DNA of 64,000 nucleotides from assembly GCA_018060955.1 (NCBI GenBank), contig JAGOVC010000001.1, positions 5,558-69,557 of the forward strand, written 5' to 3'. The notes below the pieces were generated by a model. The model was not told the origin of the DNA. It ran no database searches and worked only from the letters and a program-made list of their open reading frames with translations. Position 1 is the first letter of the stretch, and the number at the start of each line of letters is the position of its first letter. This document shows positions 21,855-54,258 of this stretch, piece after piece. Made by a program: the position numbers and the translations under genes. The DNA is from Candidatus Woesebacteria bacterium. Lineage in GTDB: Bacteria > Patescibacteriota > Microgenomatia > UBA1400 > UBA12028.

Positions 21855-23642
21855 ATGCAAATTTCCACATTACTAGCATTGGGACGAAAAATTGTACGAT
21901 CCTCCGTCCTACTTACTTTTATTGTGTTTTTGTGTGGGTTAGCATTTCGGATCTATCGCTACGATTTGTATCCATTACAGTTTGACCAAATACAAATCCT
22001 TACTCATGCAGCACAAATCAGAATGGGGGATTTGAATTTTGTCGGCCCGCGTACAGGACCGGTCGAAATGTTTACTGGTCCGTTTGTGTATTACCTCACA
22101 GCATTCTTATCTTTTTTTATTTCGACCCCTTGGACTGTGGTTGGTATGGCGGTCGTTCTCTATATTTTGACCTTCTGGGTGATTAGATCGTTGTTTGTGT
22201 TCTACCGAATTGATAAACGAATTTCATTTTTCTTCTTACTTTTTTATGCAGTCTCGCTGTATCAAGTAACGTTGGATCGAATCCCCTGGAATCCTAACTT
22301 AATGATGCTTGCATCCACACTTGTATTTGTACCCATGCGTCAAATTATCTCGCATAAAAACGTTCGAATCCTGGATGCAATCTTCCTAGCCTTAGGGGTT
22401 TTCATAGGATATCAAGCCCACTTTTCAGGCCTCTTTCTAATCCTTTTTGTTCTTTGCATTGGATTTCTTCCTGTCCGAAACAAGAAGTATGCGATTCTTG
22501 CTGGTGTCCTCGGAAGTGTAACGACGTTGTTTCCCACCTTTATTTTCGATCTAAAACATCAGTGGCTTAATTTACATGGAGTCATGGATGTCTTGAAGAA
22601 CAATCACGGTACAGTTCCGACAAAGGAATTTTTTCTACTGCCATTTATTCGAGATATATTTGTAAGTTTGGAAAACATCGGAAAATTCCTAATTCCTCAG
22701 ACTGAGCAGTATTTAGCGATCGCTGCTGGAATTATCGTTGTCCTTTGGACAATCCAGTATGCCAGGCATCATAAAAACAGAGAGACTGCGTGGTTTCCAT
22801 TATTGTGGTTTTGTAGTATTAATCTACTCTTTTTTCCCTATAAAGGACCCAAACCGGAATATTACTTTTTGATTCAGTTTCCAGCAATTTTGTGGATGGT
22901 TGCAACGATGCTTTCACACATTAGAATTCCCGTCTCAAAACTGCTCTTTGCTATCGTGCTTTCATTTAGCACGATTCATTTTATTGGACTAGTATCCACA
23001 CTCAATTCGCAAAAAGAATTAATGATAGGAAGCCAAGTTGAAGCATCGAAAGTCGTTCGAGAAAAACTGCGTGAAAATCCAGATCTGCACGTGGCAATTG
23101 ACATTCAAACATTAAATCGAGCAGGACTAAATTATTTACTAAAAGATGTCCCAGAAGTTCGTACGCAAGATGAAACGCTAAACGTCGTCCATTTAATCTA
23201 TCCTGCAAATGATCGGACACCAACGACAAAACGTTTTGGCAGCTTGGTCTATTGGGAAGACCCAAGGAGAAACTCTCAGGAGAAATACCTTCTAGTAGAC
23301 AATGTCGTCATTGGTTCACCTCCTTCCTTGGAATTGTTTCGTGACGAGTATCCATCCAAAGAGTTCGACATGGCATCATCCCAATACGTCATTTTTAGAG
23401 AAGGAGAAAAAGTAGGCAGACTACTGCTGTTAGTTGACGATATTGATAATATACGTCGAAAAGATTTCTTAAAGCAGTTTGAAGAGGAATGGGGAGAAAC
23501 GGTCAGTGATTGGCAGCCTGTAGACTACAAGGGAGGAAAAGTGTATCTTCAAGCAAAGAAAAAAACTGTGTTCTTGCTTCAATTATTAACCGATGATGAA
23601 GCTAGCAAAAAAGACTCTTTTCAACTAAAGCTGTATCCCTGA
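21855..23642 (+). CDS. Polytopic membrane protein, GT-C-like; member of the 'GDLxxxGPxxS' paralog family.
   Basis: 595 aa. The N-terminal loop AAQIRMGDLNFVGPRTGPVEMFTGPFVYY is shared with the genes at 26410 (minus strand) and 52783 (minus strand). Confidence 0.75.
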   Translation: MQISTLLALGRKIVRSSVLLTFIVFLCGLAFRIYRYDLYPLQFDQIQILTHAAQIRMGDLNFVGPRTGPVEMFTGPFVYYLTAFLSFFISTPWTVVGMAVVLYILTFWVIRSLFVFYRIDKRISFFFLLFYAVSLYQVTLDRIPWNPNLMMLASTLVFVPMRQIISHKNVRILDAIFLALGVFIGYQAHFSGLFLILFVLCIGFLPVRNKKYAILAGVLGSVTTLFPTFIFDLKHQWLNLHGVMDVLKNNHGTVPTKEFFLLPFIRDIFVSLENIGKFLIPQTEQYLAIAAGIIVVLWTIQYARHHKNRETAWFPLLWFCSINLLFFPYKGPKPEYYFLIQFPAILWMVATMLSHIRIPVSKLLFAIVLSFSTIHFIGLVSTLNSQKELMIGSQVEASKVVREKLRENPDLHVAIDIQTLNRAGLNYLLKDVPEVRTQDETLNVVHLIYPANDRTPTTKRFGSLVYWEDPRRNSQEKYLLVDNVVIGSPPSLELFRDEYPSKEFDMASSQYVIFREGEKVGRLLLLVDDIDNIRRKDFLKQFEEEWGETVSDWQPVDYKGGKVYLQAKKKTVFLLQLLTDDEASKKDSFQLKLYP

Positions 23643-23737
23643 TAAGAAATTGCAAATGAGTGCAGTCAATACTTTTGGTTTGCCCTTGTGTGCACTGGGA
23701 ATGCAAGGTATAACAAGAATCAGCAAACTGGTGTTTT

Positions 23738-24394
23738 ATGAACGTCTTTATCATCATTCCCGGCCATAACGAGCAAGAGTATGTGTCGACAGTGCTTTCT
23801 AAAGTGAAAGCCATTCATTCTCAGGTTATTTTTGTCGATGACGGTTCAACGGACAACACTGCAGAACTAGCAAAAGCCCACACAAAACACGTACTTAGTC
23901 ATGAAACAAACCTCGGTAAAGGTGCCGCTTTAAAAACTGGGTGTGAGTACGCATTTTCTACCCTCAATGCAGATGCCGTTATTTTCATGGATGCAGACGA
24001 TCAACACGATCCTAAAGAAATTCCAAAATTTATCGCTCAGCTTGAAAACTTCGATGTGGTTTTTGGTGTTCGAAAAATGGGTGCAAATATGCCGTTATCG
24101 CGGTTTTTAGGGAATAAATTCGCTTCAGTGTTACTCAACGTGCTATATGGTGGGTATATACCAGATATTCCCTCAGGGTATAAAGCACTGACAAGTAAAG
24201 GGTACCGAAAAGTAAAATGGAAGTCATCTGGCTATGAAGTCGAAACAGAAATTGCGATGCGAGTGACAAAGGAGCATGTTCCTTACGCCGTAATTGAAAT
24301 TGAAGCGATTTATCACGATACCGATAAGGGGATGACGCTCATCGATGGAATACATATCTGTCGCTGTTTGCTAGAATGGAAAGTAGGATTATGA
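23738..24394 (+). CDS. Short GT2 polyprenyl-phosphate sugar synthase-like enzyme (DPM1/GtrB-like catalytic domain with no long C-terminal TM region).
   Basis: VFIIIPGHNEQEYV...VIFVDDGSTDNT...LGKGAALKTGCEYAF...MDADDQHDP. Confidence 0.75.
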   Translation: MNVFIIIPGHNEQEYVSTVLSKVKAIHSQVIFVDDGSTDNTAELAKAHTKHVLSHETNLGKGAALKTGCEYAFSTLNADAVIFMDADDQHDPKEIPKFIAQLENFDVVFGVRKMGANMPLSRFLGNKFASVLLNVLYGGYIPDIPSGYKALTSKGYRKVKWKSSGYEVETEIAMRVTKEHVPYAVIEIEAIYHDTDKGMTLIDGIHICRCLLEWKVGL

Positions 24395-24729
24395 GATTAC
24401 TTCAGATTGTTTCAGTATTGTTTGGTCTATTCATGATGTATACCGTGCGTATTCATCATCGAAAACAGCATATTGATAGCATGGAATATGGGATTTGGAT
24501 GGGACTTTGGGGAGTTTTTATTTTCTTGGCAATCTTCCCACAAACGGTGAATGGTGTCGTTCAAACTCTCAACATTGCGAGGGTATTTGATCTCCTTGTT
24601 ATTATTTCCTTGATGATCGTAGTATTTCTTACGTTTCTCAATCGAATTGAGCAAAAGCGAATGGATAAAAAAATAGAGCAGCTGGTTCGAAAGAAAGCTA
24701 TCGATGACACTAAAAAAGCCGCTGTTTAG
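24391..24729 (+). CDS. DUF2304-like small membrane protein, often partnered with DPM1-like GT2 enzymes.
   Basis: About 112 aa with three hydrophobic segments and a basic C-terminal tail (KRMDKKIEQLVRKKAIDDTKKAAV). Starting at the ATG at 24391 gives an ATGA overlap. The ORF-track start is 24376. Confidence 0.6.
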   Translation: MRLLQIVSVLFGLFMMYTVRIHHRKQHIDSMEYGIWMGLWGVFIFLAIFPQTVNGVVQTLNIARVFDLLVIISLMIVVFLTFLNRIEQKRMDKKIEQLVRKKAIDDTKKAAV

Positions 24730-25480
24730 CATTATTACTCCCAGCTACAATCAAGGCGTTTTCATCTCAACAACTGTAGAGAGTGTTTTGCATCAGGACG
24801 TTAAAGATGTTGAGCACATCATCATGGATGGTGGTTCTAATGACAGTACTCTAGATGTCTTGAAATCATTTGGTAAACGAATTGTTGTAGAGAGTAAACC
24901 TGACAACGGGCAAGCCCACGCCATAAATAAAGGCATGAAGATAGCCAACGGTCAGATTCTGGCATATTTGAATTCCGATGATTACTATTTGCCAGGTGCA
25001 TTACAAACGGTAGAAGCGATCTTTGAGGAGAATCCAAACGTCCAATGGGTAGTAGGGGATGCACAAATCGTCGATGCAAATGGCAATGAGATCCAATCAT
25101 TTGTGCGTGCCTATAAATCACTGTTACGAAAAATCTATTTTCCAAATTTGCTTGGTATCTTGAATCCAATCCCGCAGCCATCGGTGTTTTTTAGAGCCAG
25201 TGCGGTGAAGAAAATCGGCCTATTTAACGAATCACTTTCCTACACGATGGACTATGAATATTGGTGGAGACTGCAAAATCAGTTTGGTTCCCCCTATTTC
25301 GTAAATACAGCACTCTCTGCATTTAGAATTCATCAGAACTCAAAAGGAGGTAGCAGCTACAGAAAGCAGTTTGATGAAGAACAGCTTGTCGCATCTCGAT
25401 TTACGTCCTCAAGCTTGCTGCTTCACTTGCATGCCCTTCATAACCGTTGTATTCTTGCTGCGTACTCTATCCTAAAATAA
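24704..25480 (+). CDS. Family 2 glycosyltransferase; paralog set C.
   Basis: FSIITPSYNQGVFISTTVESVLHQ...IIMDGGSNDST...YLNSDDYY. It is a paralog of the gene at 38576. Confidence 0.8.
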   Translation: MTLKKPLFSIITPSYNQGVFISTTVESVLHQDVKDVEHIIMDGGSNDSTLDVLKSFGKRIVVESKPDNGQAHAINKGMKIANGQILAYLNSDDYYLPGALQTVEAIFEENPNVQWVVGDAQIVDANGNEIQSFVRAYKSLLRKIYFPNLLGILNPIPQPSVFFRASAVKKIGLFNESLSYTMDYEYWWRLQNQFGSPYFVNTALSAFRIHQNSKGGSSYRKQFDEEQLVASRFTSSSLLLHLHALHNRCILAAYSILK

Positions 25481-25483
25481 TGT

Positions 25484-26431
25484 ATGAAATTGAATAAAAA
25501 GAATATTGTTGTTACTGGAGGCGCGGGGTTTTTAGGAACCAATGTGGTGGCAGAACTGATCAAGCATGGAGCTGATCCTAAGAAAATTGTTGTTCCTCGC
25601 TCAAAAGATTTTGATCTACGTGAAAAAGAGGTTTGTGCCAGGGTAGTGACAGGGATGGATATTGTTATCCATTTGGCAGCTAACGTCGGTGGAATTGGAT
25701 ATAACCAACAGAATCCAGGTACTCTCTTTTACGATAATCTGCTGATGGGTGTCCATTTAATGGAAGAGGCGCGAAAAGCAGGAGTATCAAAGTTTGTTGG
25801 GGTTGGGACGATCTGTGCCTATCCAAAACACACTCCAGTTCCATTTAAAGAAGAGGAACTTTGGAATGGATATCCGGAAGAAACAAATGCACCCTATGGT
25901 TTAGCCAAGAAGATGATGCTTGTTCAAGCTCAAGCCTATAGAGCACAGTATGGCTTTAATTCCATCTATTTACTTCCAGTGAATTTATACGGTCCACAAG
26001 ATAACTTTAATCCGAATTCAAGTCATGTAATACCAGCGCTCATTAAGAAATTTGTGGATGCTGTTGAGAAAAAAAGTCCGGAAGTGATTGTCTGGGGTAC
26101 CGGCAAACCAACCCGAGAGTTTTTATTTGTGCAGGATGCCGCTCGCGCAATCGTCTTGGCAACTGAGAAGTATGACAAAGCGGATCCCGTTAATATCGGT
26201 AGTTCTTTTGAAATTAGTATCTACGATTTGGCGCACCTCGTCGGAAAGTTAACACAGTTTCATGGTGAGATACGGTTCGATTCTTCAAAGCCTGATGGAC
26301 AACCGCGACGCAAACTGGATGTGACACGGGCAAAAAAAGAATTCGATTTTGAGTCAGAAATCAACTTCGAGGAGGGTTTGAAATCCACAATCGAATGGTA
26401 TCTTGAACATTACTCACGCTTGAGCAAATAG
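25484..26431 (+). CDS. fcl: GDP-L-fucose synthase-like (GDP-4-keto-6-deoxy-D-mannose 3,5-epimerase/4-reductase family). It could instead be a ColC-type GDP-L-colitose synthase.
   Basis: [92 protein letters not shown] and [16 protein letters not shown] are highly characteristic Fcl-family motifs. Confidence 0.8.
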
Positions 26432-27660
26432 AGATAATAGTCGGTGTTAATCTTCCAAGTCTTTACCACAGTATGTGGTGTAAATGTATGTATTTCATAG
26501 GCAGAATTTGTGTTGAAATCAGCAGTGGTGTTCACAACGAAGAGAAAATCGTTTGTGCGATAATCTCTCGTAAATCCAGATATATTGTTTACAGTTAATA
26601 AGTAATACTGCACACTTGCGGTCGTATCGTAAGTCGGAGAAGCTACTGCAAAATTATCAAGTTTTTCATTTCTAATGATCTCAAAAACAGCGTTTTCATG
26701 TGTGTAGTTCCAGTTTTTTATCATGCCAAAGGCATGCGATGGGGCAGGCAGATAGATTCTTAGCGATACTAGAAATAGTACAACCATAGATATGGTGAGT
26801 AGTCTCTTTGAGATCTTTGGCGCAAGCATCACCGACAGAGCCATGAGTAGCAGAAAGACTGATCCCATGAAGTAATATTGTGCAAATCCGCCTCCGCTTG
26901 TAGAAGTGAGTTCTGGTAAATGATGGGCAAAAGTCCAGATTGTCTGTAACATATAGAAATTCGTTCGAAATTCATTCAGAATCATTGGAGAAAATCCAAA
27001 AATGGCTCCAAGTACAACAAGGCCATATGCTTTTAATGGAGGCCGTTGTACTGCAATCAAGTAGATAAGAACCAGCAAGAAGAAGAGCACTGCTTGGTAG
27101 TGAAATAGGAGTAAGAATCCCAATACCACCCCAACCCCTAAATACGCAACTTTCCGACCGGTTTTGTGCATAATCCCCAACATTAAAATGAACAACGGTA
27201 GGAAGGCAAGTTGAAAATTCGGATTCCACAAAAACGAGGTAAAGTTAACAAAGAAGGGTAAGAATGCATACAAACTACACCCAATCATCGCTGCTTTTTC
27301 GTTTTTGAGAAAATATAGCCCAATACCTAGTGGTATCAACATTCCGACAGAAAAGAGTGTGAATGCATACGAGGACGCGATTGGCTCAAAACCACCGAGA
27401 AGCAAGAAAAAAAGATAAACGTAGAAAATGACGGAACTTTGAAAAATTACTTTTCCTTGGTACTCAAAAGATGTTCGAGGTCCCACAAGGGTAATCTTTT
27501 TTTGGGTCCATAGTTCATGAGCTCGAAGACCAAACACACCCTGATCCGTTGAGAAGTTCACTCTATTTGGATAGTGTAGTGATCGGATGAGTATTGCACC
27601 CAGACCGATGCATACAAAGATTAGAACTGTGAAGTTTAGTTTCAAAAACACTTTTCTCAT
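26410..27660 (-). CDS. Polytopic membrane protein, GT-C-like; 'GDLxxxGPxxS' paralog family.
   Basis: [38 protein letters not shown]. The 3' end overlaps the fcl stop by 22 nt, convergent. Confidence 0.75.
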
Positions 27661-27665
27661 ACGTA

Positions 27666-29327
27666 TTAGGGATGGAATACACCATTTAGTCTTTTAGATT
27701 CATCCAACGAATAGGAATAGTTTGATAGTACTGAAGGATCAACAACACAAGGAAATAATGCTACTCCACATCGATCATCCCCGTACACTGGAGTGGTATA
27801 GGGTAATGGCGCGTCTGGACGCTGCTGATATGTCGCTGCCTTGTTGTAAATCGTTTCTACTGGATAAATAAGCTGACTTTTTCGTAATGGAGGGGAAAAC
27901 TCTTTTACAGAGGCAAGAAGAGCAAGCGAAAACAAAATAATTTGTAAAAAATACATTCCAATTTTTGGAATTCTAACTATTCGTTGAAATTGTGACAGAA
28001 TTGCTGCAACAAATAGCGCCAAAAAAGATAGAACCAGCGGCCAAAGGAGTCGAAAATCCGGAGCTGTCTTGTAGGCTGCAATAGTAATTGCAACTTGAGT
28101 CACTAGAGCGATGGTTTCTCTGGACATGATCGTCGACTGTGCTTTTTTTCTCTTTACTACCACTACCAAAATGCAAAGAAGTAGTATTGCCACAATAAGA
28201 ATAATCCAAATTTCAGTTGGAATGGTACGGATAAACATGGAGCTAAACCATACAGTTTCCGAATGAATTGATGGTTGATTAGGATTGTGCCGAGCCCAGG
28301 TATATACAGTGTCTGTATACTCAGCTACTTGGACTGGAGAGAGTGCATTTTGAACTGGCATGCAGGTCTGTTTAATCGGAAACAAAAAACATCCTGATAC
28401 AACAAATGAATAGGCAGACCAGATAATCATTGGGAGTAGAGTAGCGATCCGCGTACGTGGACGAGAGAAAAATGACGGAAGTTGATTTGAAAATAGATGC
28501 GTTCGATACAGTGACTCCAGGATACAAATAAGAGCGAAGGGAAAAAAGAGAACCATGGATATTTTGGTTGTAATACCGAGAAAAAATGCGAGCATGATCA
28601 AAAGACGCCGCTGCTCTAAAAATCCATAGAGGAGCAAGCTGGTCCATATAAAGAGAACAAGTTCTGGGGCTAGGGTAGAGAGGAGAGAAGTCTTCAAAAC
28701 GATGAATAGGAAAGTCAAGCTGAAGAACAGAAACAGCTGACTAGTGGATACAAATTCTTCTTGGTTCTTTTGGGAGTATTTTTCAAAAAAAACAACTAAT
28801 CCAAACATTATAACAAAAAAGACTGAAGGCAAATTAAAACTAGATAGTGTAGGAAGAGATGCTTGCAGAGTTGAAAATACAAATGGAAGACTGGTGGAGG
28901 CCAATCGAATATGCAGTAACGCAAGTCCAGAAACGATAGGGGATTGTGTGATGTTGATAACCGCAGGGATATGGTAGAGAAGAGAGTCATACCAGGTTGT
29001 GGGGAAACTACCAACATAGGCGATAGCGGCTGCAAAACATGATAGCAGTAGCAGTTTTAGGCCATTTTTCTCAACTAGAATTCTCAGTGACGTTGGATTG
29101 AGTAAATGTCGTTGAGAATAAAATAAAATAGTTGCTGGTAGAAGTATGATAAGTCCACTGCTCAAACCTGTAATTGGAATGAAAAAGTTTACAAACAGGA
29201 CCACAGAAAAAAGGAGTCCAATCCCAAGTAGTAATCGCTCAGTTTTGGGTAGTGTAGAATCAACCCAGGTTCCCATCGAAATGGCCGATGCAACCAAGAG
29301 CATTGATAGTATCCAAAGTACTAGCAT
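27666..29327 (-). CDS. Polytopic membrane protein, function unknown; a candidate Wzy-like polymerase, ligase or GT-C.
   Basis: 553 aa, extremely hydrophobic with at least 12 helices. It sits in an operon with the gene at 26410. Confidence 0.7.
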   Translation of the reverse strand: MLVLWILSMLLVASAISMGTWVDSTLPKTERLLLGIGLLFSVVLFVNFFIPITGLSSGLIILLPATILFYSQRHLLNPTSLRILVEKNGLKLLLLSCFAAAIAYVGSFPTTWYDSLLYHIPAVINITQSPIVSGLALLHIRLASTSLPFVFSTLQASLPTLSSFNLPSVFFVIMFGLVVFFEKYSQKNQEEFVSTSQLFLFFSLTFLFIVLKTSLLSTLAPELVLFIWTSLLLYGFLEQRRLLIMLAFFLGITTKISMVLFFPFALICILESLYRTHLFSNQLPSFFSRPRTRIATLLPMIIWSAYSFVVSGCFLFPIKQTCMPVQNALSPVQVAEYTDTVYTWARHNPNQPSIHSETVWFSSMFIRTIPTEIWIILIVAILLLCILVVVVKRKKAQSTIMSRETIALVTQVAITIAAYKTAPDFRLLWPLVLSFLALFVAAILSQFQRIVRIPKIGMYFLQIILFSLALLASVKEFSPPLRKSQLIYPVETIYNKAATYQQRPDAPLPYTTPVYGDDRCGVALFPCVVDPSVLSNYSYSLDESKRLNGVFHP

Positions 29328-29344: not shown

Positions 29345-30280
29345 ATGAGTTTGCAATGGTTATGGAGAATTATTGCAGGAGCACTACTTGTCGTAGTCTG
29401 TCTCTGTGCCTTCTTTATTCCTCAAGTAAACTTTTTGTTGCTCTCTCTACTCTTTCTTATAATCGTTGTTGCGTTGGCAAATTCGAAGTTCTCTTCGACA
29501 ACACTATATTTTTTTGGTCTCGGTACGATTGGATTGATTCTAGCTCTATGCCTTCATTCTTTATTCCCTCAAATTCAATTGAGTAGATATTATCTAGTTT
29601 TCAAATTATATCGGTTTTACACTTTACCGTCCTGGTTCTGGACCTTTCAAGTTTTGATCTTCGTATTTCCAGGTGTCGACCGATGGAGAGAGTTAGCTTC
29701 AAAGGTCCACGCGACAATCTTTTTTAAACAACGAACACCGCTTACTCTCTTACTAGTCGGAATAGTAATTGCTCAACTATTGACGGTTGGATCTCAGTTA
29801 TTTTCGCAGGGCTTGTACACACTAGAACACCGAAGCTTGCTGCCTACACAACGGTATGCGATGCGAAGGTTCGGAGTTGGTGAGTCTGGTTGGTTTTACA
29901 ATGTTGGGCTGTTTTGGCAGAAGGTTATTCCTAAAACTGATAAAGTTACGATTGGAATACCCCCACAAGGGGATCCATGGATTAAGTCGGGAAATATTTA
30001 CTATGTTCAATATTTTGTATTTCCAAGAAAAGTGGAAATGCTTCAAAGAGATATTAAAGAGGTACCCTCAAATGTAACGCATATTGTCATCGCTCGTGGC
30101 GAAACGGATCAAGGCGATTTTGGATGGCCAACTATGGTCATTCCAAAGGAACAAATAGATTGGATAGATGTCTATAATCCCTTTACCAATGAGCAATGGA
30201 AAGTTGAAAATGATGATTACAATCCAGAAGTATTCAAGAGCTATTATGGAGTAATTCATCTGAAGAGGGGTGAACAATGA
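29345..30280 (+). CDS. Membrane-anchored protein with a C-terminal soluble domain; function unknown.
   Basis: Starts at the internal ATG at 29345 (MSLQWLWRII), which avoids overlapping the divergent minus-strand gene. About 5 TM segments are followed by a hydrophilic domain. Confidence 0.6.
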   Translation: MSLQWLWRIIAGALLVVVCLCAFFIPQVNFLLLSLLFLIIVVALANSKFSSTTLYFFGLGTIGLILALCLHSLFPQIQLSRYYLVFKLYRFYTLPSWFWTFQVLIFVFPGVDRWRELASKVHATIFFKQRTPLTLLLVGIVIAQLLTVGSQLFSQGLYTLEHRSLLPTQRYAMRRFGVGESGWFYNVGLFWQKVIPKTDKVTIGIPPQGDPWIKSGNIYYVQYFVFPRKVEMLQRDIKEVPSNVTHIVIARGETDQGDFGWPTMVIPKEQIDWIDVYNPFTNEQWKVENDDYNPEVFKSYYGVIHLKRGEQ

Positions 30281-31620
30281 CATTTCTGTCGTTTGTATTT
30301 CTAGCTTCATTGCATGGATTTGGATCAACAGTCTTAGGATTATTTCGAGTTCCTCAATCATTGCTTCGGTGTGCGGCTGCCTACTTAGTTGGATCTGCAT
30401 TTGCATCGCTGTTGTTTTTCGTAGCCCTAGTTTATGGCCTAGATATTTATCGATCATTTGGGTTGGTTCTAATCTTTGTCGGAGTAGGTGCAGTGTATTC
30501 CTGGGGATCAATAGTCTATTGGAGGGAGATTAAACAGTTGCTTGTAACCGTGCTACCTCGAAATCGAGCTGAGCAAACAGTGTTTTTCCTTATTGCAGCT
30601 CTACTGAGTTTTGTGATCGTAATGAATTATTTTTGGTCCCACACGGACTGGGATGCCATTACGTTGTATGACTATCGAGCACATGTCCTCTTAGAAGTTG
30701 GCTTTTTACGGCCGTTGTTTAAAACGATTCAAGACATTTACTTATTAAGTTACCCATGGCATACCTCTATTCTATTTCTACAGCAATACATGTTAGGAGC
30801 GTGGAATGGAATGGCAATGTTTTCATTATTACTAGTAAGCATGTTGTTTACATTCTTTAGTCTGATTGAGTCGACCATGGGAAGATTCCATGCCTATATT
30901 GCTAGTTTGGCCTTGTTGAGCGTGCCACTAATTTTTGCGCACACGATGATTGCCTACACAAATTTCCCATATATGGTGTACTGGGGTTTGGGAGTTTGTT
31001 GCTTACTTTCTTGGATTTCGAGTAGAAGATTTGAGAATGTGGCTGTGGGGTCGTTATTAATTGCTGGATCGATGTGGATTCGCCAAAGCGAGCCATTTTG
31101 GTTGATTGCAGTACTACTATTACTGTATGGCTGTGTCACATTGCTGCAATGGAAAGCAAGTCTGTGGCTTCTGCCAATTGTGGGGGTATGGAGGGGTTGG
31201 AATCTTTATGTTCATGGAATTCTTAAACAGGTCTTACCACCTACTTCTGCTGAGCTTGCAACCTATGAAAAAGGCGGAAGTATGATGAGCTCTTTATCTA
31301 CACTCCTAGATCTACATCGTTGGGGAAGTGTTTTGGAGCATCTTGTCCGCTATGCTGTTCCGATTTGGGGTCCTTGGGTGTTATTTTTCATCCTCTTGCT
31401 TCTCAGTCAACGGCGAAGCAAAGATCAACTTCCATTGATATTCTCTGTGTTAGCATCTGTAGGCGCGATTGTGTTGGGTACATATTTATTTGCCAATAAC
31501 ACTTATTGGAGCGAAATCGTTGATTCATTTCAGCGTCTTTTGTTATTTGCATTTCCTGTATTCATTTATTCAACGTTTAATGTAATTAAAAGTCCGAAGA
31601 ACACTTATGTTAAAAAATAA
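30277..31620 (+). CDS. Polytopic membrane protein, function unknown.
   Basis: 447 aa with many helices. ATGA overlap with the upstream stop. Confidence 0.7.
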   Translation: MTFLSFVFLASLHGFGSTVLGLFRVPQSLLRCAAAYLVGSAFASLLFFVALVYGLDIYRSFGLVLIFVGVGAVYSWGSIVYWREIKQLLVTVLPRNRAEQTVFFLIAALLSFVIVMNYFWSHTDWDAITLYDYRAHVLLEVGFLRPLFKTIQDIYLLSYPWHTSILFLQQYMLGAWNGMAMFSLLLVSMLFTFFSLIESTMGRFHAYIASLALLSVPLIFAHTMIAYTNFPYMVYWGLGVCCLLSWISSRRFENVAVGSLLIAGSMWIRQSEPFWLIAVLLLLYGCVTLLQWKASLWLLPIVGVWRGWNLYVHGILKQVLPPTSAELATYEKGGSMMSSLSTLLDLHRWGSVLEHLVRYAVPIWGPWVLFFILLLLSQRRSKDQLPLIFSVLASVGAIVLGTYLFANNTYWSEIVDSFQRLLLFAFPVFIYSTFNVIKSPKNTYVKK

Positions 31621-41309: not shown

Positions 41310-42845
41310 ATGGAATCGAGTGGCGTGATCAGACAAAAAACCTGGATCGGTGGAATTATTTGTCTTCTAGCTAGCATTGGTTTTGCTTTTTATCTCTTTT
41401 CAGCCAGCTTATCGAACGCATTTTCACCCATTGATGATCACGAACTAGTGTTGCACCTTAGGGGACAAGAGAGACTATCCATTTCACAAGTAACTGCATT
41501 GTGGCAACGAGATCTTCAAGCGACTGGAAGATTTCGTCCTCTGTATAACATTCTTCGTCCGCTTGAGCTACTTCTATGGGGAAACCATCTAAATCTCTGG
41601 TACTTGGCTCGCGTCATTCTCTTTAGTCTATCGATGTTCTTGTGCTGGTTACTTTTGAAACACGCGGTCGGGATGCTCTTTGCATCTCTAATCAGCTCAT
41701 GGTTTTTTACATTTGCGTTTTGGGCAGACATTATTGGCAGGCTGGGGCCATCAGAGAGTTACAGTCTATTTGGCTTGCTTTGTTGGGCTTGCGGTCTTTA
41801 TGGGCTCTATGCGCGGTCACAACAAACTTCTGCATGGAGTTGGTTATTACTTTCTATCGGAAGTATCATTGCGATTCTTACCAAAGAGAACATGCTGATC
41901 ATCGTGCTTCCAACCATCGGAATCACTTTGCTTAATCGGTCGAAAGTATATTCAAAAGGTCTGTTGTTTCTTCCAGTAATTTCTAGTTTCTTGGCATCAT
42001 TTTTCGTTATCCGATATTTAGTAAGATTATCCTCTGTAGTAGGAGTTGATGTGTACGGCAATAGTCTAGGTGTGTCTAGAGTAAGCCTGCTACTGGATGT
42101 ATTTTTAGATAAAACAGTTCTAGGATTGCTACTTGGAAGTGCGATTTTACTTTGGTTTTCGATTTCTGTTCCCTCACCAAGCTGGCGAAGAGATTTTTCA
42201 CATCTTTGTTGGGCATGGATAACCGCCGTCTCTTTACTCATATCCCAGAGTTTCTTTTACAACGGCCAATGGCCAACAAATATTCGCTATGATTTCCCAG
42301 GAATGTTCTACAAGCTGATCATTGTCGTTAGTGTGATATTTCTTCTAAAGCGGGTTGTGATTGATCGTTTGGATAACCAGTCGGCACGAATAGTAACGCT
42401 GGTGCTGACATGCTTCCTTTTTCTAGGAGTCATACGTCGTTCGCAGATTTGGGTTTTGCGTTCTCGAGTCCAAGCCTATCATCAACTGACACGATCTTTT
42501 GCTTCAGGATTACAAGCTATCAAAGCGACGAGCCCTTCAATGGATATCATTTTAGAATCAACCTCGATAAATGATCTTGAAATTATTCACGCCATCCAAG
42601 TATCTCTTCGACAAAAATATCTAGCCAATGCCATCTATCTTCGTTTACACCATCAAAATACTAATGAAGAAGGGGCATTGGGAGGGCAACTGTATACAAG
42701 CCTGTTACAAACTCAAAACGATGGTACGGATGTTTTTATGCCACTAGCTAAAAGAGAAGCTGTGAAACCTTGCATCTCGATTTTCCTTGGGCAAGAAACT
42801 CAAACGGAGTGCACACCATCCAGCATTATTGCAGTGACATGGTAG
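41310..42845 (+). CDS. Polytopic membrane protein, function unknown.
   Basis: 511 aa, with many helices in the N-terminal two-thirds and a soluble C-terminal domain. Confidence 0.7.
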   Translation: MESSGVIRQKTWIGGIICLLASIGFAFYLFSASLSNAFSPIDDHELVLHLRGQERLSISQVTALWQRDLQATGRFRPLYNILRPLELLLWGNHLNLWYLARVILFSLSMFLCWLLLKHAVGMLFASLISSWFFTFAFWADIIGRLGPSESYSLFGLLCWACGLYGLYARSQQTSAWSWLLLSIGSIIAILTKENMLIIVLPTIGITLLNRSKVYSKGLLFLPVISSFLASFFVIRYLVRLSSVVGVDVYGNSLGVSRVSLLLDVFLDKTVLGLLLGSAILLWFSISVPSPSWRRDFSHLCWAWITAVSLLISQSFFYNGQWPTNIRYDFPGMFYKLIIVVSVIFLLKRVVIDRLDNQSARIVTLVLTCFLFLGVIRRSQIWVLRSRVQAYHQLTRSFASGLQAIKATSPSMDIILESTSINDLEIIHAIQVSLRQKYLANAIYLRLHHQNTNEEGALGGQLYTSLLQTQNDGTDVFMPLAKREAVKPCISIFLGQETQTECTPSSIIAVTW

Positions 42846-47812: not shown

Positions 47813-49117
47813 ATGAATACGAAGTCTGTTATACCAATTGGTGTTTTGTTAATTGTCGATAAATTGGATTTAGGGGGTGGCGCCCGAAGAATCAAAGTTT
47901 ATGCGGACATGCTTGACCGATCACACTATACCCCAGTGGTGGTGTTTCGGACATCGGTCATTCATCGAGATGTTGACTCCGTGATTGGGAAAGACACTCC
48001 ACGACTGCACTCATCGGACCCAAAGCAAATTGCTCAATTTGCTGCGAAGCATGCAGTGAAGGTTGCGTACTGTTGGTATGACGGAAAGTTTCATCAGGAT
48101 TTATTTGACCTGCTGATGCAACTCAAAAGAAACAAGATTGCTGTGGTAGCAAACAATGTGTTCTCCTACGTAGACACCCGCATGGATAGTTTGTGTGATG
48201 TGGTCGTCTTTCAAACAAAATTCATGATGTATAAATTTGTACGTCAACTAGATAAGAAACCACGTCAACTCAAGAAATATGTGGTGCTACCAAATCCTGT
48301 TCATGATGTGTACAGCGGACAATTTGCCTTAAATTCTCAACAACTGCAAACAAAACGATCGAGCTTAGGATTTAGTGAGAAGGATGTGGTATTTGGAAGA
48401 TTCGGTCGTAATGATATCGTCAAATGGGGTGATAGCTTGACAGGGGCTATGCTGTCTCATTTGCATCATCCTTCGGTTAAATTTTTGATAGTTGGAATGC
48501 CACGCTCCCGACGATGGCTATTCGCATTTCTTCGTTTCTTGGATCCTACCATTAGTCAGTCGATCAAAATTCTGCCTCCTACTTCCAGTGACAGAGAGCT
48601 CTTTGAGCTTATGCAGTGTACCGATGTCATTGCCCATAGCGTCAAAATCGGAGAAGGTTGCTCCAACGCAATTAACGAAGGAATGTACTGGGGTAAAGCA
48701 GTAATCACTAATCCGACACCGCACTGTGATAACGGACAGGTTGAACAAGTAGCCCATGAGCAGTTTGGATTAATTGTTAGAGGGATGTCTGAATGGAATT
48801 CTGCTATTGAAAAGTTAGCAGCGGATGAACGGCTTCGAAAGCAATTCGGACGACATGCAAATGAAAATGTACTCTCGCAGATCACCGCAGAAAAGATTGT
48901 AAAGAAATTTGAAATGATTCTCGACCTTGCTCTTGGAGGGCATATTTCAAAGACGCTGATCTCACCTGACTCTGTAGAGTACAAAAAATTCGTGGAAAAT
49001 TATACTGAAAATGCCAGACTTTCTGGTTCTGTGCTTCCAGTTTCTTTACTAGGAAAACTAGGATCATTTCTACTTCGTGGATTTGCATACCTTGAGTTTA
49101 AATTCTTTAATGGATAG
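47813..49117 (+). CDS. Divergent GT-B fold glycosyltransferase-like protein.
   Basis: N-terminal LDLGGGARRIKVYADML resembles a GT4 G-rich loop. C-terminal IAHSVKIGEGCSNAINEGMYWGKAVI. Weak assignment. Confidence 0.6.
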   Translation: MNTKSVIPIGVLLIVDKLDLGGGARRIKVYADMLDRSHYTPVVVFRTSVIHRDVDSVIGKDTPRLHSSDPKQIAQFAAKHAVKVAYCWYDGKFHQDLFDLLMQLKRNKIAVVANNVFSYVDTRMDSLCDVVVFQTKFMMYKFVRQLDKKPRQLKKYVVLPNPVHDVYSGQFALNSQQLQTKRSSLGFSEKDVVFGRFGRNDIVKWGDSLTGAMLSHLHHPSVKFLIVGMPRSRRWLFAFLRFLDPTISQSIKILPPTSSDRELFELMQCTDVIAHSVKIGEGCSNAINEGMYWGKAVITNPTPHCDNGQVEQVAHEQFGLIVRGMSEWNSAIEKLAADERLRKQFGRHANENVLSQITAEKIVKKFEMILDLALGGHISKTLISPDSVEYKKFVENYTENARLSGSVLPVSLLGKLGSFLLRGFAYLEFKFFNG

Positions 49118-49167
49118 TTGATTGCCTCTTTGCAAATACACTGTCGAGTACTACACTTCAAGAACTT

Positions 49168-50166
49168 ATGAAGTCTATCGGCATCGTAGGAGTAGGATAT
49201 TGGGGGCCAAATTATGCTCGAATTCTTTCTGCGATGGACAACATACATTTCTCCTGGTGCGCTGACCTAAATGCGAATGCTCTTTCCAAAATGCAAAAAA
49301 ATTATCCTGATGTGAAGGTAACAACCTCAGTATCAGATCTTTTGAATGATGAAAGCCTAGATGCAGTGATCATCGTTACTCCGGCTCAGACTCATTTTGA
49401 ACTTGTCAAGCAATTTTTAATTGCTGGAAAAGATGTCTTAGTTGAAAAGCCCCTTACCACAACATCCAAAGATGGAGCAGAACTAGTAGCTTTAGCAAAG
49501 AAACATAAGCGGATTCTCATGGTGGATCATACGTTTGTCTTCAATCGCTCTGTGCAAGCTCTTAAAGCTGCAATCGATGCAGGGAGCCTAGGGAAACTAC
49601 TTTATGCGCATGGTCAATACAATGCGCTTGGCCCAATCCGTTACGATGTATCCGCAATGTGGGATTTGCCACACTTGATCTATGTGGCTCAATACTTGTT
49701 CGGTGCACAAGCAAAACGAGTGTCTGCGGTTGGGAAATCCTACTATCAGAAGGATAAAGAAGACGTTGTTTTCCTGACGATGGAATTTCCAAATAAAATT
49801 CTCTTTAATCTCTCGTGCTCCTGGATTGATCCAGTTAAAGTTCGAAAGCTGACATTAGTTGGTGATAAGAAAATGGCATCTTTCGACGACATGCTGTCGG
49901 AGAAACTTACTTTTTTTGACAAGGGTGTGCAAACGCAAACGGATCCAAATTTTGCAAAGTTACAGTTAGTCGTACGCAATGGCGATATCACCACTCCATA
50001 CATTCCTCCCAATGAGCCGTTAAAGGATGCAGTTCTCTGCTTTCTCTCTGCATTAGAATCCAGAAAACTTGAACAGTCTACTGCTTTGGATGGTGTCAAA
50101 TTAGTTAGAGTCCTAGAAGCTGCACAAGAATCGTTATCACATTCTGGGGCTAGTATCGAAATATAA
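49168..50166 (+). CDS. Gfo/Idh/MocA-family NAD(P)-dependent oxidoreductase (WbpB-like sugar 3-dehydrogenase candidate).
   Basis: IGIVGVGYWGPNYARIL and the EKP signature (VLVEKPLTTT). Confidence 0.8.
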   Translation: MKSIGIVGVGYWGPNYARILSAMDNIHFSWCADLNANALSKMQKNYPDVKVTTSVSDLLNDESLDAVIIVTPAQTHFELVKQFLIAGKDVLVEKPLTTTSKDGAELVALAKKHKRILMVDHTFVFNRSVQALKAAIDAGSLGKLLYAHGQYNALGPIRYDVSAMWDLPHLIYVAQYLFGAQAKRVSAVGKSYYQKDKEDVVFLTMEFPNKILFNLSCSWIDPVKVRKLTLVGDKKMASFDDMLSEKLTFFDKGVQTQTDPNFAKLQLVVRNGDITTPYIPPNEPLKDAVLCFLSALESRKLEQSTALDGVKLVRVLEAAQESLSHSGASIEI

Positions 50167-50170
50167 CCAT

Positions 50171-50839
50171 ATGGACTCAGTAATTTATCAAAACGTTGTG
50201 ATCGGAAAGGGAGCCGTTCTTGAAGAGGGAGTAGTGATCGGGCGGCCACCGCATGGCAAAAAAGATGGGGAACTACCAACCATCATTGGAGAAAATGCAG
50301 TCATTCGAGCCTACACCATTATTTGTGCAGGTGTAACAATTGGCAACAATTTCCAAACCGGACCGCATGTGTTTATTCGTGAACAAAACACAATTGGAGA
50401 CAATGTCTGTATTTGGGCGAATGCTGTAATCAACTATGACAACCATATAGGTAATGATGTTCGACTCCATGTTGGATCATTTATTGAGAAGACCAAAATT
50501 GGCAATCATGTCTTTTTCGGTCCACATGCCGTGTGTACGGATGATCCACACCCGGTAATGCCTCCTGATTATTCTCAATGTTGGAAGGGTGCAACGATTG
50601 GTGACGGAGCGATCATTGGCGCAAACAGCACAATCTTGCCACATGTCACTATTGGGAATGGCGCTGTTATTGGAGCTGGTAGCGTGGTTACTAAACCTAT
50701 CCCTGAATTTACTGTGGCAGTGGGTAACCCTGCAAAAGTGATGAAGTTTGTAGAAGAAATTGTCTGCTCACGTTGTGGAAAGAAACATAAACCATATGAA
50801 CACTACAGGAGTACCTATGCAAATGATTCCATTCGTTGA
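50171..50839 (+). CDS. Hexapeptide-repeat N-acetyltransferase (WbpD/PglD-like candidate).
   Basis: Tandem [LIV]G hexapeptides ([15 protein letters not shown]...[31 protein letters not shown]). There is a C-terminal [14 protein letters not shown] tail. Confidence 0.8.
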
Positions 50840-51929
50840 TTTAAAGGCACAGTACCAAACCATAAAGAAAGACATGGATCAGGCTATTCTTGATCTAGTA
50901 GGATCAACTCAATTTATACTTGGCAGTGATGTGGCAGCTTTCGAACAAGAATTCTCAGCTTATTGCTCAGTGAAGCATACCGTTGCCGTCTCATCTGGAA
51001 CTGAAGCGCTTATATTAGCGTTGCGGGCACTGGAAATTGGACCAGGTGACGAAGTGATTGTCCCTGCAAACACCTTCATTGCAACTGCTCTGGCTGTATC
51101 GTATGTAGGAGCAAAACCAGTTTTAGTAGATGCGGATGATCAAAACTACAACATGGATCCAGAACATGTAGTCCGTGCCATTACATCTCAGACAAAAGCA
51201 ATCATGCCAGTCCATTTATATGGTCAGCCAGCAGATATGACACCTCTGCTTAAAATTGCAAAAGAACACAAGCTGTACGTCATTGAGGATGCATGTCAAG
51301 CTCATGGGGCTGAGTACAAAGGTAAACGAGTTGGAGGAATCGGAGATATTGCTGCATTTAGCTTTTATCCCGGAAAGAACTTGGGAGCCTATGGGGACGG
51401 TGGTGCGGTCACGACCAACAACAAGAAACTGTTTGACCGGGTTACACTTTTGCACAATTATGGCCAGAAGGTAAAGTACCATCACGAAGTCAAAGGAACG
51501 AACAGCAGACTCGATACAATCCAGGCAGCAGTCTTACGTGTAAAGTTACCACATCTTGATGCTTGGAACTCCAAACGACAAGAAATTGCACAGCAGTATG
51601 CTCAAGGGTTGGCAAACCTTCCGATCACTCTTCCGGCCATCGATAAAAATCGCACCCATGTGTTTCATATTTATGCGATTATGACGACCAAACGCGACAA
51701 GCTGCAACAACACCTCCATGAAAAAGGGATTAGCGCTCAGATCCATTATCCAGTCCCAATTCATTTACAAAAGGCGTACGCAGAGCTACAGCACGGCAAA
51801 GGGGACTTTCCGGTGAGTGAATATCTGGCCAGCCATGAATTAAGTTTACCAATGTATGCAGAAATGACAGAAAAGCAGGTTCACACTGTGATTGAAGGGA
51901 TTCGTTCATTCTTTTCAGCAAATGCGTAA
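50817..51929 (+). CDS. DegT/DnrJ/EryC1/StrS-family PLP-dependent sugar aminotransferase (WbpE-like candidate).
   Basis: AGGAG 6 nt upstream of the ATG at 50817. [14 protein letters not shown], and [18 protein letters not shown] with the Schiff-base Lys intact. Confidence 0.8.
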
Positions 51930-51955
51930 CGCTGTCACCCAACTATCAACTCGTT

Positions 51956-52771
51956 ATGCGTGATCAACAGAGTATTACTGCCTGTATCGTGACTCATAAT
52001 GATGGCCATCAAATCGAGAAGTGCCTGAAAAGTATCGTTAAAGTCTGTGATGAAATTCTCCTCACGCACGACGGTCCATGTTCGGATAATACCCTTATAA
52101 TCGCTAAAAAATATGGCTGTGTGATCACACAGGCCAAGGCTTTAGGATTTGCAGAGCCACATCGTGCGACGCAATTTAAAAAGGCCAAAGGGGCTTGGAT
52201 CCTTGTGATTGACCCCGATGAGTATCTTTCCGATGAACTACAAAAGAATTTGAAAAGACTGGTGAAGTCTGATGCAGCGGATGCATATTTCTTCTTATGG
52301 AGATTTTGGGATGGCAAACGCAATATCACCAAGAAGTGGCCACATCGAATTGGCGTGGTGAAGAAGACTTGCATGCGATATCTAGGCATTCAGCATACGG
52401 ATTGGACTCCCAGAGGACGATTGAAGCTGGTTGACTATGAGTTGTGCCACCGGCCGACGTACGATAACAATACTTGGAAAACATTCACAACTAAACATAC
52501 GAAGTGGCTCTCAATTCATGCAAAGCAAATCTTAACTCCAGTAGATCAGATTCCACAGTTTCAGTGGAATAGTACGCTGCTTCCAAAGCATCTCGAGTGG
52601 ATTAAGCGCTATGACCTGTGGATTGCGCCGTTTATCTTTATTTACTTTATAGCTGGCGCTTTGATACTATCCTTTAGAACTGAAGGATTTAGACTTTGGA
52701 AATGGGCGTTTTTTCAAGCATTCTATTACTTTCTATTGTGTTTTGAAGTGAGTCGTTTAAAGCGGTCTTAG
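51956..52771 (+). CDS. Family 2 glycosyltransferase; paralog set D, with a C-terminal TM segment.
   Basis: See the alignment with 32974. VIDPDEYLSD. Confidence 0.8.
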   Translation: MRDQQSITACIVTHNDGHQIEKCLKSIVKVCDEILLTHDGPCSDNTLIIAKKYGCVITQAKALGFAEPHRATQFKKAKGAWILVIDPDEYLSDELQKNLKRLVKSDAADAYFFLWRFWDGKRNITKKWPHRIGVVKKTCMRYLGIQHTDWTPRGRLKLVDYELCHRPTYDNNTWKTFTTKHTKWLSIHAKQILTPVDQIPQFQWNSTLLPKHLEWIKRYDLWIAPFIFIYFIAGALILSFRTEGFRLWKWAFFQAFYYFLLCFEVSRLKRS

Positions 52772-52782
52772 CAAAAAGTTTC

Positions 52783-54258
52783 TTATCGTGTGAGTCGATA
52801 AACAGCCACAACACCATGATTGGTCTGTACCTTTTCGAGCAGCTCCTTTTTAGTTGCTCCAAACTGTGTTGTTTCCCAATTTGTAGAAACTAACGGGTCT
52901 TTGGTACCCTCCTCTTGAATGTAGTAGAGGACTTGAGCTTTTTCATAGGACTGTTCAAATACTGGTTGGTATCCTGCCTTTTCTAGCAAAAAACGATATT
53001 CATATCCGATACCAGTTAGCCTGTCTGAACTATCTTTAAAAATCGTAAAGGAAGTTGGCTGAGTTGAATCAATATCTGCCCTGATTCGATCTACAACAAA
53101 CTGAATATTTTCCTGCGTTCGAAAGATTTCAGGAAAACGAAGATTCCTCCATTGCGATAACGTAAGGAGGAGGATCACCACTACAATTAGAAAACGCGGT
53201 CGAACTTGTGACGCAACGGCAGCAGTCCACAATAAAAACAGTGTCATCGGTATCAACAGGTAGTAATCATATAAATATCCACTATATAAAAGAAGCATGA
53301 TGATACTTCCAAGCGCTGAAAGCGACAGAGTAAAGATAGTTACGTTAGCAAAAAGTGAACTTCTCTTAATTCGCATTCCAATTCCGAGAAGGCCTAATAA
53401 AACGATCGAAAGCAATTTGTTTTGAAGAGTGAAACTTACGATACGATCAAGTTTTTCAATGAAGGATAAATGCGGATGATTGGCTGCAATACCTTTTCCT
53501 GCAGCTGAATCCAACAAATACTGGAGGAAGGCCTTGGATGTAATAAAGTGATGACTGATGTCAAACACAATCAACGGACTGATCATCACGATGATTCCTG
53601 TTGCAAACAGCACAGCCGCGATAATCTTGCGCTGAAAAGTACCTCGTGTCTGATATAGCAACAACAGCCCAACGGCAGGTAGAAGCAGTAGTGCACTGAA
53701 GTGAACATGAAAGAATAATCCAAAGACTAAACCAGCAATAAAAAACCATCGATACTGCTGTCGTTTGATTGCTTCCAAATACACTCCAAAAAAAAGAACA
53801 GTGACAAGCGGCATCATGGGTTGATTTGTCGCTGTTCGACTTGCAACTACAAGTGCAGGGTGAGTACTAGCAAGTAGAGCAAAAAGAATTCCTGCAAATG
53901 CAGAAAGGTGTCGGCGAAGCACAAGATATCCAACTACAACCGTGAAAACGCCCATCAAGATAAACGTGAGAACCATCATCGGCGGGTGCAACCCAAACAG
54001 TAGGTACACGACAGCGATACCGTAAAAGTAGAGGGGGGCTAAATAGAAGCCTCCAACACTAGCTTGAGGACCAAGCAGGGTTAGATCACCGCGCATGATT
54101 CGGAGTGCAAAGAGTGAGTCTCTGCCAAAATCGCTATCAAATGCAATCGAATTTGCAAAGTTCTGAGATCTAAAATATAGGGCAGCGATAGTAAACAGCA
54201 GTACAAGGAAAATATCTCTGCGTTGCACCTTCGAAAGTATGTCTCTAAATATTCTCAT
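52783..54258 (-). CDS. Polytopic membrane protein, GT-C-like; 'GDLxxxGPxxS' paralog family.
   Basis: FDSDFGRDSLFALRIMRGDLTLLGPQASVGGFYLAPLYFY is shared with the genes at 21855 and 26410. Confidence 0.75.
   Translation of the reverse strand: MRIFRDILSKVQRRDIFLVLLFTIAALYFRSQNFANSIAFDSDFGRDSLFALRIMRGDLTLLGPQASVGGFYLAPLYFYGIAVVYLLFGLHPPMMVLTFILMGVFTVVVGYLVLRRHLSAFAGILFALLASTHPALVVASRTATNQPMMPLVTVLFFGVYLEAIKRQQYRWFFIAGLVFGLFFHVHFSALLLLPAVGLLLLYQTRGTFQRKIIAAVLFATGIIVMISPLIVFDISHHFITSKAFLQYLLDSAAGKGIAANHPHLSFIEKLDRIVSFTLQNKLLSIVLLGLLGIGMRIKRSSLFANVTIFTLSLSALGSIIMLLLYSGYLYDYYLLIPMTLFLLWTAAVASQVRPRFLIVVVILLLTLSQWRNLRFPEIFRTQENIQFVVDRIRADIDSTQPTSFTIFKDSSDRLTGIGYEYRFLLEKAGYQPVFEQSYEKAQVLYYIQEEGTKDPLVSTNWETTQFGATKKELLEKVQTNHGVVAVYRLTR

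Follow-up and report, generated by a model that had tools for sequence, protein, structure and literature searches.

Three probable GT-C glycosyltransferase paralogs sharing a variant ArnT-like first loop in a Candidatus Woesebacteria genome

Multi-component glycosylation systems made of a GT-A glycosyltransferase, a flippase and a PMT_2-type GT-C glycosyltransferase have been described as a general framework (PMC8035078). In Streptococcus mutans, PgfS, an epimerase and two membrane GT-C proteins glycosylate surface adhesins (PMC5856776, PMC12041528). In the solved GT-C enzymes, the Asp proposed to be catalytic follows the first transmembrane helix (TM1) (PMC11127046). Here we describe three genes that resemble the GT-C component of such systems in a stretch of 64,000 nucleotides (nt), hereafter the window, of contig JAGOVC010000001.1 from a Candidatus Woesebacteria bacterium, a member of the Patescibacteria or Candidate Phyla Radiation (CPR). 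We call them A (21855-23642, plus strand), B (26410-27660, minus strand) and C (52783-54258, minus strand), and we call D the gene that starts at 62600 on the plus strand. An initial annotation made from the sequence alone had proposed that A, B and C share their first extracytoplasmic loop; open reading frames (ORFs) do exist at these positions and contain the peptides it quoted. With a probability of roughly 0.8, we consider A, B and C to be paralogous inner-membrane glycosyltransferases of the GT-C_A class, similar to ArnT and PMT, which fall into a single PMT_2-superfamily clade, abundant in Patescibacteria, and which have a polyprenyl-phosphate-sugar-dependent mechanism. The homology, predicted fold, conservation, gene adjacency and gene fusions reported below are computational observations.

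The putative glycosyltransferase C has 491 amino acids (aa), with a membrane domain at about residues 1-375 and a C-terminal alpha/beta domain at about 380-491, and represents a branch with the signature 'D.GRD...TLLGP..SVGGFYLGPLYFY'. It is 100% identical to the NCBI entry 'glycosyltransferase family 39 protein [Candidatus Woesebacteria bacterium]'. Protein A, of 595 aa, has a larger, beta-rich C-terminal domain (about 410-595) and represents the likewise putative 'FDQVQI...TLIGPRTGPA.MFTGPLIYY' branch; it is identical to 'hypothetical protein KBD71_00130' of the same organism. Protein B, of 416 aa, stands for the smallest and rarest branch, 'NFSTDQG...ITLVGP..S', and shares a homologous C-terminal domain with C. 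Orthologue sets were collected and aligned for each protein (44 sequences for C, 21 for A and 10 for B), and their profiles were compared with hhalign. The comparison of C with A gave an E value of 2e-36 over 383 columns, that of C with B 2e-30 over 402 columns, at full length through the C-terminal domain, and that of A with B 1e-21 over 237 columns, with the loops in register in every case. The C-family profile also found the single sequences of A (5e-18, 329 columns), B (2e-16, 386 columns) and 12715 (1e-10, 214 columns), a gene of another family in the window. Leave-one-out searches with hidden Markov models (HMMs) covered the window's 17 large membrane proteins. The C-family HMM scored A at 102.9 bits and B at 77.6, followed by 12715 at 58.0 and D at 17.0; the A-family HMM scored C at 87.5 bits, B at 39.5 and the next protein at 9.6; and the B-family HMM scored C at 48.9 bits, A at 24.9 and the next protein at 18.8. 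Each family's HMM ranks the other two members of the trio next, above the remaining membrane proteins of the window. From the profile comparisons and this ranking, A, B and C can be regarded as a real paralog group, with D as a distant relative only, and the proposal that the three share their first extracytoplasmic loop is borne out.

The loop follows one plan across the trio, with an Asp shortly past TM1, then an amphipathic helix, the 'TL[LIV]GP' hairpin and finally 'GP.YYY'. In C it covers residues 43-79 (nt 54022-54132, minus strand; DFGRDSLFALRIMRGDLTLLGPQASVGGFYLAPLYFY), including D43 as the proposed catalytic Asp, a helix at 42-55, the hairpin TLLGP...GGFY and the start of the next helix at PLYFY. 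In A it covers residues 44-80 (nt 21984-22094, plus strand; DQIQILTHAAQIRMGDLNFVGPRTGPVEMFTGPFVYY), and in B residues 39-80 (nt 27421-27546, minus strand), where the hairpin has a 4-residue insertion and 'QSS' replaces 'GP' ahead of YY. Three to five Lys or Arg residues precede TM1, and this positively charged N-terminus places the loop outside the cytoplasm. The AlphaFold2 models of C (predicted local distance difference test score, pLDDT, 93.8; predicted template modelling score, pTM, 0.92; 66-sequence alignment) and of A (pLDDT 90.6, pTM 0.88; 73-sequence alignment) show the same order of elements: the Lys/Arg-rich N-terminus, TM1 (13-30 in C, 17-33 in A), a helix (42-55 in C, 43-56 in A), two short strands (65 and 72 in C, 66-67 and 72-73 in A) and a helix that starts from 'GP.YYY'. 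The charged N-terminus and the secondary structure of the models thus agree with the position first given to the loop, after TM1 and on the outer face.

In all three orthologue sets, the loop ranks with the segments of highest conservation. The C family is invariant, in 36 sequences, at D43, G45, R46, D47, I54, T60, G63, S67, G69, G70, L73, P75 and Y79. In the A family the orthologue set conserves D44, Q45, Q47, I48, A52, I55, G64, P65, F73, T74, G75, P76, Y79 and Y80, and in 73 sequences D44, Q45, Q47, I55, G64, P65, G75, P76, Y79 and Y80 are invariant; the B family conserves N35, F36, S37, Q40, L58, G60, P61, S64, Q74 and Y80. The sole acidic residue conserved across the three families is D43 of C, equivalent to D44 of A and D39 of B, which is kept in at least 90% of the 66-sequence alignment. 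It lies about a dozen residues past TM1, where the juxtamembrane helix begins, and of 134 further relatives 131 have an Asp as the first residue of the motif. The catalytic acids had been sought in 'FDSDFGRD' of C; D43 retains that candidacy through its conservation across the clade, while D47 is confined to the C branch and D41 varies. Other positions common to the merged alignment are R30, G63, Y79, G180, H186 (invariant), P228, F232 and Y332/Y333, and a second motif, 'SP.I.FD.RH.F', lies at about residues 227-237.

Regarding the family assignment, Pfam PMT_2 (PF13231, threshold 26.1 bits) matches C with 48.3 bits and B with 26.6, barely above the threshold, and is matched by 53 of 66 clade members at E<=0.01. 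A has no PMT_2 match at E<=1 and no match in Pfam or NCBIfam, and NCBIfam returned nothing significant for any of the three. In this sense, the comparison with PMT_2 recommended earlier came out mixed, with C above the threshold, B barely so and A left unmatched. The PMT_2 model spans residues 74-231 of C, and the loop looks unfamiliar because the model begins directly past it. The view that the loop falls outside the classical PMT/ArnT plan was overstated, and it has the look of a variation on the loop plan of ArnT. Relatives are named 'ArnT family glycosyltransferase' by NCBI. As expected for the GT-C_A class, the modelled proteins have a polytopic membrane domain with a predicted fold like that of the solved GT-C enzymes, and a conserved acidic residue opens the first extracytoplasmic loop past TM1. 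The figures given for the A model are 20.6 for ALG12, 20.3 for Pmt4, 19.6 for AftA, 19.0 for AglB and 18.3 for ArnT. We found no paper on this clade in the literature on GT-C, GT39 or ArnT proteins of Patescibacteria. The suggestion of a distinct GT-C subfamily stands insofar as the trio forms a separate clade in which we found no solved or characterised member; it does not stand as a group outside the classical families. The clade is a new subfamily within the known GT-C superfamily and not a new type of enzyme, and the understanding of GT-C enzymology is left unchanged by it.

The genes around C and A bear on the mechanism. Directly upstream of C lies a gene for an NAD-dependent sugar-nucleotide epimerase/dehydratase of the short-chain dehydrogenase/reductase (SDR) type (54245-55303, minus strand; Pfam Epimerase, 195 bits). 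The stop of this gene shares a 14-nt overlap with the start of C, and C is translationally coupled to it. Its best NCBIfam matches are dTDP-glucose 4,6-dehydratase and GalE, both below cutoff. Divergent from this operon is a gene for a family 2 glycosyltransferase (GT2) of 332 aa (55218-56216, plus strand), similar to PgfS (NCBIfam 249 bits, residues 2-307 of 308) and ArnC (154 bits, 7-312 of 316), in both cases under the equivalog cutoffs, which is a candidate maker of the lipid-linked donor of C. The arrangement of GT2, SDR and C is kept in two orthologous loci (L001, L002). Only 5 nt past the GT2 stop, a four-helix membrane protein of 113 aa (56221-56562, plus strand) is a candidate flippase similar to ArnE/F (half-EamA). 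Downstream of A the order is a 218-aa GT2, a DUF2304 protein, a second GT2 and an SDR similar to Fcl. The 218-aa GT2 (23738-24394, plus strand) starts 96 nt after A and is similar to PpgS, AglJ and dolichyl-phosphate hexose transferases (NCBIfam AglJ 100 bits and PpgS 98 bits, residues 2-216 of 226, both below cutoff; Pfam Glycos_transf_2 91 bits). A polyprenyl-phosphate GT2 is in this way found next to the GT-C gene for both C and A. Between the two GT2 genes, the small DUF2304 membrane protein (24376-24729, plus strand; Pfam 64.5 bits, cutoff 25.5) has a start that overlaps the end of the PpgS-like gene. The second GT2 (24704-25480) is the nearest one to B and is not of the polyprenyl-phosphate type. 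The SDR (25484-26431, plus strand), similar to GDP-L-fucose synthase (NCBIfam Fcl 278 bits, residues 2-306 of 308, cutoff 500), is convergent with B, and the 3' ends of both genes overlap.

Natural fusions of a GT2 with a GT-C also occur in the clade, in five metagenomic proteins of about 710-740 aa (P0095, P0134, P0185, P0212 and P0064) with an N-terminal GT2 and a GT-C that carries the motif; they constitute a Rosetta-stone link between donor synthesis and transfer. A sister 'DEGRD' branch of 72 loci (L009-L080) usually has its genes co-directional in a strongly conserved operon, around 700-4000 upstream of the match: first one or two SDRs, next a GT2 of approximately 380 aa, then the GT-C gene and, in many cases, another GT2 of approximately 250 aa. 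In most of these loci a GT2 lies immediately upstream of the GT-C gene. One SDR of locus L017 (operon L017:908-4001) scores above cutoff, with 453 bits, as the GDP-mannose 4,6-dehydratase Gmd. The gene content of this branch suggests a polyprenyl-phosphate 6-deoxyhexose as donor. By analogy, the GT2 and SDR neighbours together with the fusions point to a polyprenyl-phosphate-sugar-dependent glycosylation outside the cell, and the neighbourhood is comparable in pattern to the multi-component transmembrane glycosylation systems (PMC8035078), the Arn pathway and the Pgf machinery (PMC5856776).

These likenesses have their limits. The PMT_2 GT-Cs of multi-component systems (GtlB, GttB, GtcC, YkcB, CsdD/F, GtsC and GacL; PMC8035078), likened here by description, carry the same PF13231 domain as C and B, are of similar size and also lie next to a GT-A synthase of polyprenyl-phosphate sugar; unlike them, A and 86 relatives among the best matches lack any PMT_2 match. 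The S. mutans machinery (PgfS, PgfM1, PgfE and PgfM2; PMC5856776, PMC12041528), likened by gene content, resembles the module of C in its PgfS-like GT2, its SDR of the epimerase family and its membrane GT-C, while the PgfS score in the module of C is under the equivalog cutoff of 500 and the gene order is different.

Taking ArnT, PMT and PglB as models, we infer catalysis, the role of the Asp, the type of donor and the acceptor as follows. The protein would have a cytoplasmic N-terminus followed by TM1, and its first outer loop would open with the Asp, placed at the surface of the membrane, and continue with a juxtamembrane helix of amphipathic character ('A..I..GD'), the beta-hairpin 'TL[LIV]GP....F' and the next helix, 'GP.YYY'. 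A nucleotide sugar would be tailored by the neighbouring SDR and put on polyprenyl phosphate at the cytoplasmic face by the neighbouring GT2, PgfS/ArnC-like for C and PpgS-like for A. The lipid-linked sugar would then be flipped, possibly by the 113-aa protein, and the GT-C enzyme would hand over the sugar, outside the membrane, to an acceptor that the loop Asp may activate or position. The donor phosphate is probably bound by H186 and by residues of 'SP.I.FD.RH.F', and the C-terminal soluble domains would probably aid acceptor binding. A cell-wall polymer, a lipid and a surface protein are the candidate acceptors.

Several findings weigh against this assignment. The family profiles matched no solved GT-C, ArnT or PMT chain in a PDB search at E<=1, and neither the PDB nor the literature yielded a solved or experimentally characterised member of the clade. 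The equivalence of loop residues with ArnT depends on a weak hhalign of the merged profile with E. coli ArnT (b2257; probability 9%, E 0.0036), which pairs the loop Asp with the D of 'PDETRY', 'GD' with 'GDW', 'TLLGP' with 'HLLGLR' and 'FLGPLYYY' with 'FEKPIAGYW'; it is a hint consistent with the fold result, too weak as proof of residue equivalence. The phosphate-binding Lys of 'EKP' in ArnT has no counterpart in the clade loop, where the aligned position is L, T or S, followed by G/A/S-P. B has no adjacent GT2, and homologues of A and B at three other loci (L082-L084) have no neighbouring GT2. The names given to the GT2 and SDR proteins of the window all fall below the NCBIfam equivalog cutoffs, so that the sugar cannot be named, and the flippase assignment of the 113-aa protein is below threshold (Pfam TMEM234 21.9 bits, EamA 20.5 bits). 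It is improbable, in our opinion, that the trio has the GT-C fold without a glycosyltransferase role, as in a non-catalytic scaffold like PIG-U/GAB1 or in another enzyme acting on a lipid-linked substrate; the GT2 partners and fusions described above fit a glycosyltransferase.

The scenario that would have undone the shared loop, a chance local similarity between three proteins of unrelated established families, has practically no likelihood left. Pairwise comparisons would speak for it: BLASTP among the window membrane proteins was weak (A-C 8e-5, A-B 0.004, B-C 0.23), and since these pairs do no better than C with 12715 (6e-5), pairwise similarity alone cannot settle the kinship of the trio. 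HMMs of the loop alone, searched against 274 six-frame ORFs of the window, were marginal from A to C (9.6e-4), from C to B (0.012) and from A to B (0.027), and not significant from C to A or from B to A; also, the consensus 'DxxxxLxxAxxIxxGDLxxxGPxxSxGxFxxPxxYY' typed in the initial annotation matches none of the three proteins literally. HMMs built from the loop regions, akin to the check proposed there, give only marginal scores in the window, where whole-domain profiles separate the trio clearly; in terms of sequence, the loop marks the group and the whole transmembrane domain, not the loop alone, establishes it. Against chance stand the full-length profile comparisons with the loops in register and the reciprocal ranking in the window, which already refute it, as well as the further common motifs (H186, SP.I.FD.RH.F and YY332/333) and the single fold, with identical order of secondary structure, predicted for A and C.

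The names given by NCBI would instead make the trio ordinary orthologues of characterised enzymes, either the protein O-mannosyltransferases of GT39 or ArnT (GT83), and this we regard as very improbable. The classical PMT domain (PF02366) matches none of the three and only one of the 66 clade members, at 8e-4. The Asp-Glu pair of the first loop is missing, as are the MIR and PMT_4TMC domains of the eukaryotic and actinobacterial O-mannosyltransferases. Identity with ArnT (Cupriavidus metallidurans 5EZM/5F15, E. coli b2257) is 12%, with no match at the sequence level, and the family profiles do not find its PDB chains even at E<=10. ArnT has 'D-E' where the clade has 'D-F/Q' (F in C, Q in A and B), and it has 'YFEKP..YW' where the clade has the TL[LIV]GP hairpin and 'GP.YYY', with loss of the Lys that binds the phosphate of undecaprenyl phosphate. 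The host is a CPR bacterium, and no genes similar to arnB, arnD or the formyltransferase gene are among those adjacent to A, B and C. CPR bacteria are not known to have lipid A, which also counts against ArnT. A paralogous clade of GT-C glycosyltransferases of its own accounts better for A, B and C. Within that reading, it is possible, though rather doubtful, that the acceptors are large surface proteins or pilins, O-glycosylated in a Pgf-like manner, and not wall polymers or lipids. The best score of the GT2 beside C, as PgfS, favors it, and homologues of A and B adjoin giant surface proteins (L082:1-3758 and L084:6417-11263), one of 1,843 aa with Big_5/MG2/A2M/Hint domains and the other of more than 2,297 aa with Big_13/fn3/PQQ/CarboxypepD_reg domains, which are possible acceptors. 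On the other side, such neighbourhoods number only two, teichoic acids or polysaccharides are what many PMT_2 GT-Cs decorate (PMC8035078), and the window resembles a polysaccharide locus, with membrane proteins of the size of Wzx-like flippases and many GT2 and GT4 genes.

The window also contains a first family of GT-C paralogs (10329-11867, 12715-14409 and 15765-17489) of the same superfamily as the trio. The C profile aligns with 12715 over the first approximately 230 residues (E 1.2e-10, probability 97%), with a common 'SR..W..N' motif, and the likeness ends past the PMT_2 domain; in the leave-one-out searches this family scores well below the members of the trio. Its loop is classical, 'W[DE]EA..GY.A.SI..TG.D..G...P....FGDYKP..YFY', with an acidic pair and a Lys-Pro. 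We considered 'WNPN' as a motif specific to the clade and rejected it, since 12715 has an aligned 'SRGGWEVN' and the motif is a general PMT_2 feature. What sets the clade apart in sequence comparison is that the second acid has been lost, that it has a TL[LIV]GP hairpin and an FD.RH helix, that K-P has given way to G/A-P, that the likeness continues through the second half of the membrane domain, and that B and C have a C-terminal alpha/beta domain in common. D (62600-64000, plus strand) is a GT-C-like membrane protein outside the clade, cut by the window end. The initial annotation had seen a weaker resemblance there, which agrees with its 17 bits to the C-family HMM and with its loop, 'PDSFHYILPARNLLMGKGF...PPFY', which has no TLxGP hairpin; its scores with the A-family HMM (about 1 bit, E 0.11) and the B-family HMM (-16 bits) are not significant. 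Its match to the NCBIfam family LA_3751/LA_3752 (NF047440), for a protein truncated by the window end, reaches 24.7 bits, below the cutoff of 200.

The clade is large and mostly of CPR origin. We searched the merged 66-sequence profile against 1.84 billion cluster representatives (clusters at 50% identity) and obtained 36,200 matches at E<=1e-3, 9,662 at E<=1e-10 and 3,625 at E<=1e-30. Among the best 150 matches, the motif is present in 131 of 134 new proteins; 86 of the 134 are of the A type (median 579 aa; 'FDQVQI...TLIGPRTGPA.MFTGPLIYY') and 47 of the C type (median 505 aa; 'D[EQ]GRD...TLLGP..S.G..YLGP.YYY'). The B type is rare, with 10 homologues found. A scan with the C-family alignment pattern over one genome per GTDB species confirmed 354 loci, and titles were read for the best 80. 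All group-specific titles among these 80 are of Patescibacteria (Curtiss-, Levy-, Roizman-, Chisholm-, Gottesman- and Collierbacteria, Paceibacterota and Saccharimonadales, the last at L024 and L075). Some 30 of these 80 records are titled 'uncultured Gammaproteobacteria/Pseudomonadales' (L001, L002, L011, L014, L016 and L017 among them), some with '... binchicken'; we suspect that these titles are placeholders or mislabels. The protein of one of them, L001, is 77% identical to the Woesebacteria protein. A tblastn search of 72,556 plasmids with P0077, a member of the DEGRD branch, gave no match. Pfam and NCBIfam do not detect the A-type branch, whose annotation is 'hypothetical'. The signature described here (Asp, helix, TL[LIV]GP and GP.YYY; H186; SP.I.FD.RH.F) may be used for annotation. 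It also supplies defined candidates, together with their cognate GT2 and SDR partners, for studying the surface make-up of CPR bacteria.

CPR genomes are tiny, yet the 64 kb of this window encode some 17 large polytopic membrane proteins, of which many are GT-C-like, and in view of this number surface glycosylation is evidently a major investment for these episymbionts. A more speculative extension, which we hold to be unlikely, is that the 'D.GRD', 'FDQVQI' and 'STDQG' branches deserve a CAZy GT-C family of their own, that the TLxGP hairpin and the 'FD.RH' helix replace the Lys/Arg of ArnT in donor binding, and that the members O-glycosylate the giant surface proteins or pili by which CPR episymbionts attach to their hosts. 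If true, O-glycosylation of surface proteins and pili would explain the many paralogs of the clade in Microgenomates.

The A-family profile gave one PDB match that we rejected as chance, between the A loop and residues 97-138 (LPLVGPATGASSMTTDPLVF) of 3lop_A, a periplasmic substrate-binding protein (12.9 bits, E 0.29). Seven further large polytopic proteins are encoded in the window (1057-2745, 18586-20646, 27666-29327, 30277-31620, 41310-42845, 56573-58384 and 58407-60092), none of them significantly similar to the profiles of the trio; 1057-2745 has no NCBIfam match and the other six have no significant Pfam match. Also, in locus L083 six membrane proteins with lengths around 575-610 aa stand in an array; one of them is an A-type clade member and the others have no match or a weak match to PMT/PMT_2. 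We considered the neighbours of about 575 aa as tandem paralogs of the A-type homologue and rejected them, as they are not members of the clade. Microgenomates stack diverse GT-C-like genes, in L083 as in the window.

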